A stretch of 46,204 nt of DNA from a virus (IMGVR_UViG_2541047747_000001), one strand, 5' to 3'. Counted from the first letter of the stretch, positions 23,874-29,367 are shown. Made by a program: numbers and translations. Notes: a model not told the origin generated them from the letters alone.

Positions 23874-24127
23874 ACAACCAGACAATGACTTTTACCCCTG
23901 AGCAATTACGTAAACAGGCACAGGAAATGTTGCGGCAGGCGGAACAACTGGAAAAAACAGGTGTAACAAAAGATGCCATTCGTCGGGATATGGTGCCAGC
24001 GCTCAGGGAACTGATGCAGGCAAAACACCGTGCACAAAAAGCAGTGGATGAGCTGGTGGATTGTGTGGCAGAGCTGGAAACCAGAGTTGGTAAGTTTGAA
24101 AAACTGGTGCAGGAGGTACTGCGCTGA
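23870..24127 (+). CDS. hypothetical coiled-coil protein
   Basis: 85-aa ORF coupled between the helicase and Q genes. Confidence 0.45.
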   Translation: MNNQTMTFTPEQLRKQAQEMLRQAEQLEKTGVTKDAIRRDMVPALRELMQAKHRAQKAVDELVDCVAELETRVGKFEKLVQEVLR

Positions 24128-24495
24128 TGCGTGATATGTACGAAGTTTTAGATCGTTGGGGGGCCTGGGCTGCAGCAGATAACAGTGGTGTGGACTGGCA
24201 GCCGATAGCAGCAGGCTTCAAGGGGCTTTTACCACACGGTAAAAAGTCACGTCTCCAGTGTGATGATGACGAAGGTATCATGATAGACGGTTGTGTGGCT
24301 CGGTTGCGAAAGTATAAACCCGAAGAGTATGAGTTGATCATTGCTCACTTTGTTATTGGTATCTCATTACGCGCTATTGCTAAAAAACGGAAATGTTCAG
24401 ATGGAACAATACGGAAAGAGATGCAAACAGCAATGGGGTTTATTGATGGCTGCTTGTCATTTTTCATTTACTACAATGACTTAAGTTCTATGTAA
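24127..24495 (+). CDS. Q: late-gene antitermination protein Q-like
   Basis: 122 aa; N-terminal VLDRWGAWAA and C-terminal HTH-like ISLRAIAKKRKCSDGTIRKEMQTA; lies upstream of the lysis module. Confidence 0.6.
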   Translation: MRDMYEVLDRWGAWAAADNSGVDWQPIAAGFKGLLPHGKKSRLQCDDDEGIMIDGCVARLRKYKPEEYELIIAHFVIGISLRAIAKKRKCSDGTIRKEMQTAMGFIDGCLSFFIYYNDLSSM

Positions 24496-24558
24496 AATCG
24501 TTCTACTTTCCCAACTTTTATGTGTATATAATACCAGGATAAAGTAACGGAGAATCTT

Positions 24559-25599
24559 GTGAACATTCAGGCAGTAGACATTTTTTGTGGTGCGGGGGGC
24601 TTAACTTTTGGGCTAAAAAAAGCCGGGATTGAGGTTTCTCATGGTATTGATATTGATGAATCCTGCCGTTTTGCTATTGAGAGCAATAATCCTTTAACGC
24701 AGTTCATTAATCAGTCAGTTACAGAACTGCAATCCTGCGATGTGTCTGCTATGTTCAAGGAAGGAAATATTAGATTGCTTGCTGGATGTGCTCCTTGCCA
24801 ACCGTTTTCCAAGTATCGTAATCCAAATAGCCGTAAAGACGATACAAAGTGGCGTTTGTTATATGAGTTTCAAAGGCTTGTAAGTGATGTAATGCCAGAG
24901 CTTGTGACGATGGAGAATGTTCCTCAACTTAGAAACCATAAGGTTTTTGAAGGGTTTGTTAGTGCATTAAAGACTCTTGGATATCATTTGTGGTACGACG
25001 TTGTAAGATGTTCTGAGTATGGCTTACCTCAAAATAGACGTAGATTAATTCTAATTGGTTCCCAATTGGGGCCGATCAGCCTTGATCAAAAAAAAGTTAG
25101 CCGTAAAGTTACTGTTAAGGATGCTATTGGTAGGTTGCCAAAAGTAGGGGCAGGTGAGAAGCTGGAAAGCGATCCCTTGCATCGTTCGCCTAAATTGATG
25201 GATATCAATCTTAAACGAATCATGCATTCTTTACCTGGTGGTACGTGGGATGACTGGCCTGAAGAAATTAGAGCAGACTGTCATAAAAAGAATTCAGGTG
25301 CTACCTATAAAAGCGTTTATGGACGGATGGTTTGGGACGATACTAGCCCTACGATAACTACCCAGTGTTATGGATATGGAAATGGACGATTTGGCCATCC
25401 TGAGCAAAATCGCGCCATAACTTTGCGTGAAGCTGCGATTTTGCAATCCTTTCCAATGGATTATAAATTCCTTGACAAGGAGACGCCTTTTTCATTCCAA
25501 AAATTGGGGACAATGATTGGAAATGCTGTTCCCCCTATAATTGGTCAGATAATAGGGGAAACATTTATCAGACATGTTGAGGGGATAAATACCCGTTAG
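24559..25599 (+). CDS. DNA (cytosine-5)-methyltransferase
   Basis: Motif I FCGAGG, motif IV PCQPFS, ENV and QNRRR motifs; GTG start with GGAG RBS. Confidence 0.85.
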   Translation: MNIQAVDIFCGAGGLTFGLKKAGIEVSHGIDIDESCRFAIESNNPLTQFINQSVTELQSCDVSAMFKEGNIRLLAGCAPCQPFSKYRNPNSRKDDTKWRLLYEFQRLVSDVMPELVTMENVPQLRNHKVFEGFVSALKTLGYHLWYDVVRCSEYGLPQNRRRLILIGSQLGPISLDQKKVSRKVTVKDAIGRLPKVGAGEKLESDPLHRSPKLMDINLKRIMHSLPGGTWDDWPEEIRADCHKKNSGATYKSVYGRMVWDDTSPTITTQCYGYGNGRFGHPEQNRAITLREAAILQSFPMDYKFLDKETPFSFQKLGTMIGNAVPPIIGQIIGETFIRHVEGINTR

Positions 25600-26257
25600 A
25601 GGTAATATAATTTTCTGTTGAGTTGATTAATAAACGCAAATATAGATCAATTCTTTCTGACCTCGATTTGACTTCTTCTAAAGGGTCTATTTGACCTTTT
25701 TTAGAAAAGCTGGTACTTCCATGTGCCAGCTCATTTCTGATATCTTTAAGTAAATCTAAGTCAACACCATTTCTACACTCTGGTGAGTTTGCAACAGTTA
25801 TTCCGTAAGCTTGTGTTATTTTGTGCAATACAGACTTGCAAACATTACCATTGAATTCTTTACGTATGTTTAATGAGGCTGAAATGATCCTTTTAGATAT
25901 ATCGGAACCAATTTTTTGATAAAGAGATTTTCCCGATTCATTATCTGAAATGATACGGTGCAAGATATTTACTTGGAATTTCTCCCTGAGTGATGCGTAA
26001 TTTACTTCATTATCTTGCAAATGGTCATAAATTGACTCAATGCATCCTCTGGCAGTGTTTTCAACCTGATTGTACAGCATCATGTGCACGGATGATTTTA
26101 AAATGTTAACCCTAAGGGTATTTGATTCTATTTCATCTTTATGCGTTTGCTGATCTAACTGCTGAGTCTGAGCCTCTAAAGATGACGCAAGAGAAAGCAA
26201 TTCCATAATATCTCTTGCTCTTTCTTCGTATTCATCTCTTAAATCAATCAAACTCAT
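25568..26257 (-). CDS. HEPN-domain protein (putative RNase effector), second gene of DUF262-HEPN cassette
   Basis: 229 aa; C-terminal R-x4-H motif RNELAHG; start 2 bp after the DUF262 gene stop; 3' end overlaps the convergent C5-methyltransferase by 32 bp. Confidence 0.65.
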   Translation of the reverse strand: MSLIDLRDEYEERARDIMELLSLASSLEAQTQQLDQQTHKDEIESNTLRVNILKSSVHMMLYNQVENTARGCIESIYDHLQDNEVNYASLREKFQVNILHRIISDNESGKSLYQKIGSDISKRIISASLNIRKEFNGNVCKSVLHKITQAYGITVANSPECRNGVDLDLLKDIRNELAHGSTSFSKKGQIDPLEEVKSRSERIDLYLRLLINSTENYITSNGYLSPQHV

Positions 26258-26259
26258 AG

Positions 26260-27417
26260 TTACATTCCTAATAATTTATCTTTGACATAAAATATTCTGT
26301 TTTTGAGTTGGCTGGTGTTGTTGGCACTATCAGCAGTAACTATGGTTTCAAATTCCTCCCCAAACAGCCAGTCTCCTACAGGAATAACCGGAGCCTGTAG
26401 ATGTGGATTGGCTTTTAAGGCAAGAGCAGTTCCCACTGCTATGGCTTCGTATCTAGCACGGGGGGTGGTTTTGCTTGTTGGTGTCTTTTTAAACCCCATA
26501 GGGAAATGAGCATCTACAAAAGCAAGCATGCTTTCAAAATCATGTTTAAATTTGTCTACATCTTGTTGTGTGACCCTTTCGGCCTGAACATTAAGATAAT
26601 TGTCAATAAAAGGAGCGACATAACCCTTATAATTTTCTAAATCATTTAAGTATGCAAAAAATCTCAAAACTAACTCACGATGATCGCCATTCGAACGTTT
26701 CCGATCTGATAATGGAGCTAGACTAGCGAAAAGTGGATTTGTTGAGCAAGGAGTCACAACATCCCTATAGAAAATTGAAGTGGCCGCATCTGAACCATGT
26801 CTAACCTCCATCGCTTCCAGTCTCTTAACACCTGAATTTATTCTTTCGAATAAATCTCTTCTATGCTGCTCCTCAACATCACCTTTCAATTCAATAAATC
26901 TTAGTGATGCCCTTAAAAATCGCCTCTGGCGGCTAGCCAAAAGATCTGAAAATTTGAAGCCCTCTAAACTTTTGAGTTCTTTTAAGTCTTTCAATTCAAA
27001 CTGATTGTTCCAAAAGTAGTAAATTGAGCGAATCCTTTGTGAACCGTCAATAATTTCTACACGACCATCCAACTCAGGATCTTCATTAAATACGTCGGAG
27101 ATGTAGAGGTACGGGATTGGAAAATCTAATAATATACTTTCGATGAATCGAGAGGCTGTTTTGATATCCCATTTGTAATCGCGTTGATAATCAGGAATAA
27201 AAAGTTCGTTTTTGTCAGTTTCAAGATTATTGCCATACTTTTGTACAATTAATTCAACGGTCCATTCACGTACGTTGTATCCAATATTTCTCTGAGCAAG
27301 CCTAATCTCGTTGTCGGCAGAAGTGACCAAGGCTGCAATTTCAGCTTTTTTTCTATTTTTCGCGTTTTCATCTTGAATCTGAGCAAGCTCTTCTTTGAGT
27401 TCTTTGAGTGTGGTCAT
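26260..27417 (-). CDS. DUF262 (ParB-like nuclease/NTPase fold) domain protein
   Basis: 385 aa; signature blocks FIPDYQRDYKWD and IIDGSQR; AAGGAA RBS before the start. Confidence 0.7.
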   Translation of the reverse strand: MTTLKELKEELAQIQDENAKNRKKAEIAALVTSADNEIRLAQRNIGYNVREWTVELIVQKYGNNLETDKNELFIPDYQRDYKWDIKTASRFIESILLDFPIPYLYISDVFNEDPELDGRVEIIDGSQRIRSIYYFWNNQFELKDLKELKSLEGFKFSDLLASRQRRFLRASLRFIELKGDVEEQHRRDLFERINSGVKRLEAMEVRHGSDAATSIFYRDVVTPCSTNPLFASLAPLSDRKRSNGDHRELVLRFFAYLNDLENYKGYVAPFIDNYLNVQAERVTQQDVDKFKHDFESMLAFVDAHFPMGFKKTPTSKTTPRARYEAIAVGTALALKANPHLQAPVIPVGDWLFGEEFETIVTADSANNTSQLKNRIFYVKDKLLGM

Positions 27418-27527
27418 ATCACTGTTCCTTTAATTGGAGTTGGAAATAGATTGTAAGAAAACTATAACGCGTACGCAAAAAATATTATATCGTGTTAAGA
27501 GTGGTTACTACGCCACACAGCTTAAAC

Positions 27528-27547
27528 CCGCCGCCAGGCGGTTTTTT
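27528..27547 (+). terminator. rho-independent terminator in the divergent intergenic region
   Basis: CCGCC-gcca-GGCGG followed by TTTTTT; candidate promoter TTGGAA-17-TATAAC about 70 bp upstream. Confidence 0.5.
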
Positions 27548-27670
27548 GTGTCCGAAAAACGGCGCAGTACGTTAAACGTGCTGGTGGTTGCGAATACCTG
27601 TCTTTCAGCTTGCTGGCTTTTTCGACAAGAGTTATTGGTGTGTCACGTTAACCGGAAAAGGGAAAAAGAC

Positions 27671-27868
27671 ATGCTAAAACAGCAGGATATGACAGAAACC
27701 GCCAGAGTAGTGTTTAATGAATTAAGCGTTACCGAACCGGCGACAGTCGGGGAGATAGCGCAGAATACTTACCTTTCACGCGAACGCTGCCAGTTAATAC
27801 TGACCCAGCTGGTTATGGCGGGTCTGGCAGACTATCAGTTCGGTTGTTACAGACGCCTTCCGCAGTGA
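27671..27868 (+). CDS. small winged-helix DNA-binding protein (hypothetical)
   Basis: 66 aa; stop codon lies inside a terminator hairpin (GCCTTC-cgcagt-GAAGGC + TTTTTT, 27855-27880); the 144-aa ORF-track version would read through the terminator at 27528. Confidence 0.5.
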   Translation: MLKQQDMTETARVVFNELSVTEPATVGEIAQNTYLSRERCQLILTQLVMAGLADYQFGCYRRLPQ

Positions 27869-28018
27869 AGGCTTTTTTATTTGTGGTAAATGGGCGGCTG
27901 GTGGGTGTTAGGGGCACCCACCAGCCATCTGCTCATGCGTTGGGTTCACAAGCAAACCTCAGGCCCACTGCTTTGCGCAAAAGCAGAATGAGCCTATCAG
28001 AGACAGGCTTAATGATCC

Positions 28019-29068
28019 ATGCTTAATACTGTAAAAATATCCAGTTGTGAGTTAATCAACGCCGACTGCCTGGAATTTATCCGGTCGTTACCCGAAAATT
28101 CTGTTGACCTGATAGTCACGGACCCGCCGTACTTTAAAGTGAAGCCTGAGGGCTGGGATAACCAGTGGAAGGGCGACGATGATTACCTGAAGTGGCTGGA
28201 CCAGTGTCTGGCGCAGTTCTGGCGGGTGCTGAAACCTGCCGGAAGTCTTTACCTGTTCTGTGGTCATCGCCTGGCATCTGATATCGAAATCATGATGCGT
28301 GAACGCTTCAGTGTGCTGAACCATATTATCTGGGCGAAGCCGTCCGGACGCTGGAACGGATGCAACAAGGAAAGCCTGCGGGCGTATTTCCCCGCCACAG
28401 AGCGCATTCTGTTCGCGGAACATTATCAGGGGCCGTATCGTCCGAAAGATGCCGGGTATGCGGCGAAGGGCAGTGCACTGAAACAGCATGTGATGGCCCC
28501 GCTGATTTCTTACTTTCGTGATGCGCGCGCGGCCCTGGGGATAACGGCAAAACAGATTGCAGATGTCACAGGAAAGAAAAACATGGTGTCGCACTGGTTC
28601 AGTGCCAGTCAGTGGCAGCTACCGAACGAAAGCGATTATCTGAAATTACAGTCGCTGTTTGCCCGGGTGGCAGAAGAGAAACATCAGCGCGGTGAACTGG
28701 AAAAGCCCCACCACCAGCTGGTGGATACGTATACGTCACTGAACCGGCAGTATGTGGAGCTGCAGAGTGAATATAAGCATCTGCGGCGGTATTTTGGTGT
28801 GACGGCGCAGGTGCCGTACACGGATGTATGGACACATAAACCGGTGCAGTTCTATCCCGGGAAACATCCGTGCGAAAAACCGGCAGAAATGCTGCAGCAG
28901 ATAATCAGCGCAAGCAGTCGTCCGGGTGACCTGGTTGCAGATTTTTTTATGGGCTCAGGTTCAACGGTAAAAGCGGCACTGGCGCTCGGGCGTCGTGCGA
29001 TTGGCGTTGAACTGGAGACCGGACGTTTTGAGCAGACAGTCAGGGAAGTTCAGGATTTAATCGTTTGA
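28019..29068 (+). CDS. DNA N6-adenine methyltransferase (DPPY motif)
   Basis: 349 aa; motif IV LIVTDPPY and SAM-binding region FFMGSGST. Confidence 0.8.
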   Translation: MLNTVKISSCELINADCLEFIRSLPENSVDLIVTDPPYFKVKPEGWDNQWKGDDDYLKWLDQCLAQFWRVLKPAGSLYLFCGHRLASDIEIMMRERFSVLNHIIWAKPSGRWNGCNKESLRAYFPATERILFAEHYQGPYRPKDAGYAAKGSALKQHVMAPLISYFRDARAALGITAKQIADVTGKKNMVSHWFSASQWQLPNESDYLKLQSLFARVAEEKHQRGELEKPHHQLVDTYTSLNRQYVELQSEYKHLRRYFGVTAQVPYTDVWTHKPVQFYPGKHPCEKPAEMLQQIISASSRPGDLVADFFMGSGSTVKAALALGRRAIGVELETGRFEQTVREVQDLIV

Positions 29069-29117: not shown

Positions 29118-29193
29118 GGCCCTTTAGCTCAGTGGTGAGAGCGAGCGACTCATAATCGCCAGGTCGCTGGTTCAAATCCAGCAAGGGCCACCA
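29118..29193 (+). tRNA. tRNA with CAT anticodon (Ile2/lysidine type, ileX-like, or Met)
   Basis: Manual fold: 7-bp acceptor stem GGCCCTT/AAGGGCC, D-stem GCTC/GAGC, anticodon loop CTCATAA, T-loop TTCAAAT, encoded CCA. Confidence 0.85.
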
Positions 29194-29200
29194 TCACATA

Positions 29201-29277
29201 CCGCCATTAGCTCATCAGGAAAGAGCGCCAGCCTTCGAAGCTGGTTGCGCGGAGTTCGGGTCCCCGAAGGCGGTCCA
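29201..29277 (+). tRNA. tRNA-Arg (anticodon TCG)
   Basis: Manual fold: anticodon stem CCAGC/GCTGG, loop CTTCGAA, encoded CCA; one mismatch each in acceptor and T stems. Confidence 0.65.
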
Positions 29278-29290
29278 TTATCTGTATCCT

Positions 29291-29367
29291 GCGTTGTTAG
29301 CTCAGCCGGACAGAGCAATTGCCTTCTAAGCAATCGGTCACTGGTTCGAATCCAGTACAACGCGCCA
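29291..29367 (+). tRNA. tRNA-Arg (anticodon TCT)
   Basis: Manual fold: perfect acceptor stem GCGTTGT/ACAACGC, anticodon loop CTTCTAA, T-loop TTCGAAT, encoded CCA. Confidence 0.85.

Follow-up and report, generated by a model that had tools for sequence, protein, structure and literature searches.

What kind of unit is encoded by the AT-rich island that separates antiterminator Q from the lysis genes in the virus IMGVR_UViG_2541047747_000001, and which genes belong to it? The whole stretch analysed, hereafter the window, comprises 46,204 nt (island positions are counted from its first letter) and is a lambdoid, phiP27/Stx-like Escherichia coli prophage. A sequence-only reading of it had described a two-gene cassette, encoding a DUF262 protein and a HEPN protein, flanked by C5 and N6 methyltransferase genes. 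Our results showed that the functional unit consists of three genes, the C5-methyltransferase (C5-MTase) being a conserved partner of the pair rather than a mere neighbour. As to its function, we favour, as probable though far from assured, a three-component defence module resembling restriction-modification (R-M), with 5-methylcytosine (m5C) as self-mark, a ParB/DUF262 protein that reads the modification and a HEPN ribonuclease (RNase) as effector. The features of the island are as follows.

24496-27490, no strand: low-GC cargo island of three genes, between Q and the backbone small open reading frame (ORF) and N6-methyltransferase (defined by GC content and the limits of phage homology)
24559-25599, plus strand: C5 cytosine DNA methyltransferase, 346 aa, GTG start (Pfam PF00145, 9.5e-54); proposed self-marking component
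25568-25599, no strand: 3'-3' overlap of 32 bp between the convergent C5-MTase and HEPN genes (from coordinates)
25568-26257, minus strand: HEPN protein of the MAE_28990 family, 229 aa (Pfam HEPN_MAE_28990 PF18737, 3.8e-16, and HEPN_RiboL-PSP, 6.7e-8); proposed RNase effector
26260-27417, minus strand: ParB/DUF262 protein resembling nucleoside triphosphatases (NTPases), 385 aa, with a helical C-terminal (ParBDB-like) domain (Pfam GmrSD_N/DUF262, 1.1e-25); proposed sensor of DNA or of its modification state

The ORF list agreed exactly with what had been read from the sequence beforehand, i.e. the gene coordinates, products of 385 and 229 aa, a 2-bp gap between the DUF262 and HEPN genes, which lie on the same strand, and the 32-bp overlap with the C5-MTase gene. 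Likewise, the Pfam search confirmed the DUF262 and HEPN domain calls at the values listed above. Q is followed directly by the C5-MTase gene, which has the same orientation, and the lysis genes start at about 29.8 kb. The suspected AT-richness of the segment was also recovered, with a GC content of 38.1% for the island versus 50.4% and 51.0% in its 3-kb flanks, the lowest value among the 865 sliding 3-kb windows that cover the whole stretch; the segment looks like acquired cargo.

The linkage between the C5-MTase and the pair was most directly visible within E. coli. DNA matching HEPN plus DUF262 was recorded at 108 places in 107 of 5,426 complete genomes, 73 of the matches displaying at least 99% identity and 34 about 85%. 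When the C5-MTase gene was searched alone, the same figures were obtained (108 places in 107 genomes, divided 73/34 as before). Between the two E. coli lineages, protein identities were 94%, 90% and 90% for the three products, which thus diverge in step.

Beyond E. coli, a DUF262 profile scan with one genome per species, followed by ORF calling and a phmmer tally, yielded 80 loci distributed among Gammaproteobacteria, Cyanobacteria, Bacteroidia, Verrucomicrobia, Planctomycetes, Lentisphaerae and Deltaproteobacteria. Among them is Microcystis aeruginosa, after which MAE_28990 is named (L020 and L022). The recurrence expected for the pair was therefore found in other species as well, and the repeated occurrence of the gene set (107 E. 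coli genomes and 80 loci elsewhere) is far beyond chance. In 71 of 74 loci, the DUF262 gene is followed directly by the HEPN gene on its own strand, the gap between them ranging from -50 to +9. Adjacency of a methyltransferase was judged in the 60 loci with enough flanking sequence (the evaluable set), 33 of which, belonging to several phyla, displayed an adjacent C5-MTase of about 345 aa. This neighbour was orthologous in nearly all cases, with E-values of 1e-100 to 1e-139 in other phyla.

Only two arrangements of the C5-MTase gene were seen. In the first (32 loci, Gammaproteobacteria and Cyanobacteria), it converges on the 3' end of the HEPN gene, which it overlaps in 23 of the 32 loci and approaches to within 26 bp in 31. 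In the second (10 loci, from Bacteroidia, Verrucomicrobia, Planctomycetes, Lentisphaerae and Deltaproteobacteria), it is found immediately upstream in the same operon, with examples of overlapping stop and start codons. Because the E. coli counts match and adjacency recurs across phyla in two fixed arrangements, the C5-MTase is regarded as a partner, and the cassette, initially described with two genes, has to be extended to three. The three proteins also co-diverge, although the distance-matrix correlations (DUF262-HEPN, r = 0.89; DUF262-MTase, 0.79; HEPN-MTase, 0.80; Mantel p = 0.001) take no account of shared phylogeny. Mean identity was 61% for the MTase and 60% for DUF262, both of which are unusually conserved, versus 45% for HEPN.

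An unlikely but serious alternative would be that the pair forms on its own an abortive-infection system of the PD-T4-2 type, a system from strain ECOR65 described as "DUF262, HEPN" (Vassallo et al. 2022), with the C5-MTase as independent cargo, e.g. an anti-restriction methylase. PD-T4-2 functions without a methylase, 20 intact pairs without an adjacent MTase were recorded and orphan methylases are common in phages, the backbone N6-methyltransferase of the window being one example. Such independence is difficult to reconcile with an MTase that shares its E. coli genome and place counts with the pair, that occurs as an ortholog in two fixed arrangements over at least five phyla (in-operon stop/start overlaps included) and that co-diverges with both other proteins; moreover, the forms devoid of MTase belong to a single derived clade.

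All three proteins display the key residues of their families. In the DUF262 protein, QRxxxW is found at residues 78-83, DGSQR at 124-128 and FERIN at 190-194, and the corresponding motifs QRxxxW, DGxQR and FxxxN are each kept in about 100% of 79 family members. In the HEPN protein, the RNELAH motif corresponds to R174-N175-x3-H179, and RNxxxH is kept in 95-97% of 74 members, across phyla; the motifs quoted earlier for both proteins thus proved to be conserved. In the C5-MTase, catalytic motifs I, IV, VI, VIII and X are intact (FCGAGG, PCQ, ENV, QNRRR and GNAVP are readable in the translation) and are kept in 38-39 of 39 orthologues. The AlphaFold model of the DUF262 protein (mean predicted local distance difference test, pLDDT, of 80) found its best structural matches in BrxU and SspE and also resembles GmrS, while its C-terminal half is predicted to be helical and gave no matches to nuclease folds. 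Among PADLOC models, NsnA of the Menshen system scored best (5.6e-46, residues 16-313), followed by PD-T4-2_A (4.3e-27, residues 72-336). The HEPN protein is modelled as an all-helical bundle (pLDDT 71.5). Its family comprises 472 clusters, and the best 120 of these 472 are all stand-alone proteins of 224-242 aa, without a single DUF262-HEPN fusion among them. In PHROGs, the proteins of the pair correspond to phrog_2598 and phrog_3846, both families of unknown function, and RefSeq protein names already follow the naming of Anantharaman et al.

These features bear on a second alternative, rather unlikely in our view, according to which the system would be a DNA-cleaving R-M: the DUF262 protein would itself be the endonuclease acting on unmethylated DNA and the HEPN protein an accessory, either a second-line RNase or a regulator. 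In GmrSD, BrxU and SspE, DUF262 is the NTPase/sensor and cleavage is carried out by a separate DUF1524 HNH domain, for which neither the DUF262 nor the HEPN protein gave a Pfam match. The REase_II model of the PADLOC scan matched relatives weakly and did not match the DUF262 protein of the window; no recognisable endonuclease fold was found in the cassette by Pfam and structure comparison. The catalytic dyad of the HEPN protein is conserved, as expected for an effector.

In the R-M-like module that we favour, the C5-MTase would mark its target sequence in the DNA of the lysogen and in that of the phage progeny. The ParB/DUF262 protein would act as an NTP-dependent DNA sensor reading the modification state at that target, either by detecting unmarked foreign DNA directly or, like SspE, by requiring the self-mark for licensing. 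It may control the HEPN protein, which is translationally coupled to it and would use its Rx4H site to cut RNA (tRNA, rRNA or mRNA), and this cleavage would stop the infecting phage, probably via abortive infection. DARNA is an earlier example of a HEPN tRNase that is switched on by DNA. Since the MTase gene has the orientation of Q and the pair runs antisense to it, the 3' ends overlapping, we infer that methylation could precede effector expression in a new host.

Several observations weigh against this reading. PD-T4-2 was cloned without a methylase, and it works and is non-toxic in K-12 (Vassallo et al. 2022); a cognate MTase is therefore not a general requirement of DUF262-HEPN pairs. The 27 remaining evaluable loci have no adjacent MTase; they are cyanobacterial and lie among housekeeping genes, 20 of the 27 pairs look intact, and the adjacent MTase has been dispensed with by one cyanobacterial clade. 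The HEPN protein of the window gave no match to the PADLOC model PD-T4-2_B even at E <= 10; family members from other phages did not match that model either. Pfam and structural comparison revealed no nuclease domain for the DUF262 protein. A PDB sequence search with the C5-MTase returned generic C5-MTases only, from which a target sequence is not inferable. A consensus promoter scan gave nothing above shuffle expectation, with fewer sites than in the shuffles. Finally, shared phylogeny is disregarded both in the correlations given above and in the decay statistic that follows.

In the DUF262 tree, the loci without an adjacent MTase formed one derived cyanobacterial clade, together with a few recent losses. 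A truncated or motif-less pair, or one with absent HEPN, was observed in 7 of the 27 loci without MTase versus 1 of the 33 MTase-linked ones (Fisher p = 0.018, phylogeny ignored). The degraded pairs belong to cyanobacterial loci L031, L056, L061, L071, L076, L079 and L083. Locus L044 has no MTase, and its close sister L045 has one. A different methylase hidden beside the loci lacking the C5-MTase was considered and rejected, their neighbours being housekeeping genes. As a bolder and tentative extension, to which we give somewhat less than even chances, the m5C self-mark would gate an RNase instead of a deoxyribonuclease, unmarked DNA unleashing the HEPN protein, i.e. R-M logic with an abortive output. 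Such a system would be ancient (at least five phyla), and temperate phages and transposons would have acquired it on repeated occasions as cargo for superinfection exclusion. PD-T4-2 and the MTase-less cyanobacterial clade would in that case be derived forms, whose methylase may have been lost or may be encoded elsewhere in the genome.

The trio was encountered on diverse mobile elements. It occurs in nine Moraxella Mcat phages, in the P2-like coliphage Peduovirus P24B2 and in Klebsiella and Yersinia lambdoid prophages, where it again fills the slot from Q to the lysis genes and its MTase gene is oriented like Q. In Pseudoalteromonas (L087:6733-10675), it lies immediately beside the Tn7-like genes TnsE_C, TniQ/TnsD and TnsC/TniB, which suggests that it is transposon cargo there and that vehicles other than phages are used. 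In P24B2 (L085:1994-3041), where the DUF262-HEPN pair is intact, annotation of the adjoining C5-MTase is limited to an N-terminal half of 234 aa, after which comes an ORF of 37 aa. The methylase gene may be frameshifted or split, or the sequence may contain an error; if real, it would provide a natural phage pair without a functional MTase. The trio-bearing prophage of Yersinia mollaretii (L088:1511-2631) further encodes, near terminase, a separate ParB_N protein and a Mom-like DNA modification protein, the latter being a second DNA-modification function in that prophage.

The following features were recorded next to the three cassette genes.

24127-24495, plus strand: antiterminator Q (ORF list; Pfam Phage_antitermQ PF06530, 3.3e-47)
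27418-27490, minus strand: region preceding the DUF262-HEPN operon; contains a ribosome-binding site, AAGGAA, and a -10-like element, GATATAAT (putative promoter, read by eye)
27671-27868, plus strand: small ORF, 65 aa, phrog_331, annotated as TrmB-family regulator in phiP27; conserved backbone gene that separates the cargo slot from the N6-methyltransferase
28019-29068, plus strand: N6-methyltransferase (Pfam PF01555, 2.2e-44)

Stx phages, phiP27 and the window have in common Q and everything rightwards of about 27465-27493, i.e. the small TrmB-like ORF, the N6-methyltransferase and tRNAs, but the sequenced Stx phages and phiP27 are devoid of the three low-GC genes. Conversely, in locus L002 (an E. 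coli prophage), the cassette lies directly between Q and a lambda-type holin, without the N6-methyltransferase. This comparison and the layout of L002 indicate that the N6-methyltransferase is backbone and that the cargo is composed of the C5-MTase, HEPN and DUF262 genes. Both flanking methyltransferases reported by the sequence-only reading are present, but the N6 enzyme, found in cassette-free phages and missing beside the cassette of L002, was rejected as a member.

In phiP27, the order is Q, cargo, TrmB-like ORF and N6-methyltransferase, and the slot equivalent to 24496-27490 is filled by gene L22 (L084:2003-3232), encoding a GIY-YIG protein that matches the PADLOC model of PD-Lambda-1, a validated defence protein, at 2e-89. 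The slot just downstream of Q in lambdoid and Stx phages thus appears to be an exchangeable defence-cargo hotspot, and the role in phage-borne defence or superinfection exclusion previously suggested for the pair remains plausible given this homologue.

Other details of the island edges and of the backbone were recorded. An inverted repeat, GTGGCGTAGTAACCAC, adjoins the GATATAAT element upstream of DUF262. A terminator-like element on the plus strand (27528-27551), composed of a GC-rich hairpin, CCGCCGCCAGGCGG, and a subsequent T-run, marks the right edge of the island. It separates the divergently oriented DUF262 start from the small backbone ORF, whose 65-aa product could regulate the neighbouring methylase. 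Right after the N6-methyltransferase gene, three tRNA genes are found at 29118-29367 (Met/Ile2-type CAT, Arg-TCG and Arg-TCT). At the equivalent site, Stx phages carry their own tRNAs and the stx genes; in the window, holin and lysozyme genes come next and no toxin gene is present there.

Mobility also lends some appeal to a third alternative, which we nevertheless regard as improbable, namely a selfish addiction (post-segregational killing) module that would stabilise prophages or transposons without a real anti-phage role. R-M-like and toxin-like gene sets are known for such behaviour, the trio is always on mobile elements in Enterobacterales and Pseudoalteromonas, and degraded pairs are more frequent among the loci without MTase. 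Yet, in a related phage the same slot is occupied by a gene homologous to a validated defence gene, and the closest tested relative, PD-T4-2, is a bona fide defence system; besides, defence and addiction are not mutually exclusive. The last alternative, a Type IV, GmrSD-like attack of the pair on phages with modified cytosines (hydroxymethylcytosine, hmC, of T-even phages, or its glucosylated form, glc-hmC) with an unrelated MTase, is very improbable since, in spite of a DUF262 fold nearest to BrxU and SspE and of the selection of PD-T4-2 on T4 and relatives with modified DNA, an attacker of modified cytosines fits badly with a linked cytosine methylase, the DUF1524 domain is missing and the synteny and matching counts of the MTase are left unexplained.

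If the methylase is indeed the self/non-self switch, as proposed in the R-M-like module, the cassette would join discrimination by DNA modification with abortive infection by a HEPN RNase, which are usually separate, and would suggest, in concrete terms, how PD-T4-2 and the many DUF262 proteins without a nuclease domain might work. About 2% of the complete E. coli genomes carry the cassette, clinical lineages of sequence type 131 (ST131) among them. Its presence in clinical strains could therefore affect phage susceptibility, which concerns phage therapy, and could add an m5C motif to methylomes; this C5-MTase is not among the enzymes of the ST131 methylome paper (strain EC958). As for the slot following Q in lambdoid and Stx phages, its occupation by the trio here and by a PD-Lambda-1 homologue in phiP27 makes it a place where defence cargo appears to be exchanged.

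The sequence-only reading had tied the pairing to no characterised system, but it can now be related to earlier work, namely the validated system PD-T4-2 and the MAE_28990-ParB-methylase operon (Anantharaman et al. 2013), and partial likenesses to several others were observed. As in Type II R-M systems, an intact MTase is tightly linked, often convergent, mobile and co-inherited with restriction-like genes; the cassette differs by having no recognisable restriction endonuclease fold, its likely effector being an RNase. DARNA, or PD-T7-3 (bioRxiv 2026), is a HEPN RNase activated by DNA sensing that cuts tRNAs and aborts infection, but it consists of one polypeptide, whose C-terminal sensor of single-stranded DNA is unrelated, and has neither DUF262 nor methylase. 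The possibility that DARNA is PD-T4-2 renamed was rejected, DARNA being PD-T7-3. No DUF262-HEPN system is present in the Payne 2024 preprint.

DUF262 domains are NTPases that read modification in GmrSD (glc-hmC) and in SspE (phosphorothioate). The Ssp system (SspABCD-SspE) likewise couples self DNA modification to a DUF262 sensor, yet its modification is phosphorothioation whereas the enzyme linked to the cassette is an m5C methyltransferase. With the Type IV systems GmrSD and BrxU, and with SspE, the cassette shares the DUF262 NTPase and sensor fold and the QRxxxW, DGxQR and FxxxN motifs; it differs in having no DUF1524 HNH nuclease, the putative effector being a separate HEPN protein. The split GmrSD analogue envisaged earlier is thus supported for one half only: the N-terminal DUF262 domain is present and resembles GmrS, BrxU and SspE, but the DUF1524 His-Me/HNH nuclease, either fused or as a GmrD partner, is replaced by HEPN.

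PD-T4-2, Dazbog, Menshen, GmrSD and SspE were treated as separate DUF262 systems by Li et al. (2025), who also mentioned DUF262 loci linked to methylases and raised, as a speculation, that these may sense or target non-modified DNA or genomes. Menshen corresponds to NsnABC (Millman 2022; Li et al. 2025), and the DUF262 protein of the window has the NsnA architecture, i.e. ParB-DUF262 followed by a helical ParBDB-like domain. Still, the cassette cannot be called Menshen because the NsnB ATPase and the inPIN effector NsnC are absent; the downstream gene encodes the 229-aa HEPN protein and there is no third co-directional gene.

PD-T4-2 is closer in organization, with a DUF262 protein devoid of DUF1524 followed in one operon by a HEPN protein of the RiboL-PSP/MAE_28990 clade. 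Its B protein matches the same two HEPN Pfam families (HEPN_MAE_28990 and HEPN_RiboL-PSP). PD-T4-2 as a whole protects K-12 against T4, and deletion of the system in ECOR65 restores T4 plaquing (Vassallo et al. 2022). The comparison was made through PADLOC models and the HHpred table of that paper and showed full-length homology between the A protein and the DUF262 protein of the window (PADLOC 4.3e-27), although the NsnA model scores higher. PD-T4-2 differs by its two genes, its lack of a methylase and its shorter B protein (both ORFs lie within 1,540 bp). It is self-sufficient with two genes, whereas the C5-MTase of the cassette shares its E. coli counts and is syntenic across phyla. The defence-profile search proposed beforehand therefore returned matches to NsnA and PD-T4-2_A but no complete PD-T4-2, Menshen or GmrSD, and the cassette is not callable as PD-T4-2 by PADLOC because the B model is not matched. 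On these sequence grounds, it is no formal member of PD-T4-2, Menshen or GmrSD.

The closest correspondence was found with the MAE_28990-ParB-methylase operon, which Anantharaman et al. (2013) tabulated, in one table line, from comparative genomics. The three components are the same, i.e. an active HEPN protein of the MAE_28990 family, a ParB/DUF262 protein and a DNA methylase, and the window displays each of them: a HEPN protein with an Rx4-6H motif, a ParB/DUF262 gene in the same operon and an adjacent methylase. The 2013 entry differs in giving no arrangement rules, phage context, mechanism or experiment, and no paper testing the three-gene form was found in the literature. Compared with the sequence-only reading, the present finding is less novel, because the operon was predicted in 2013 and its two-gene relative was validated in 2022, and more structured, because it comprises three components.

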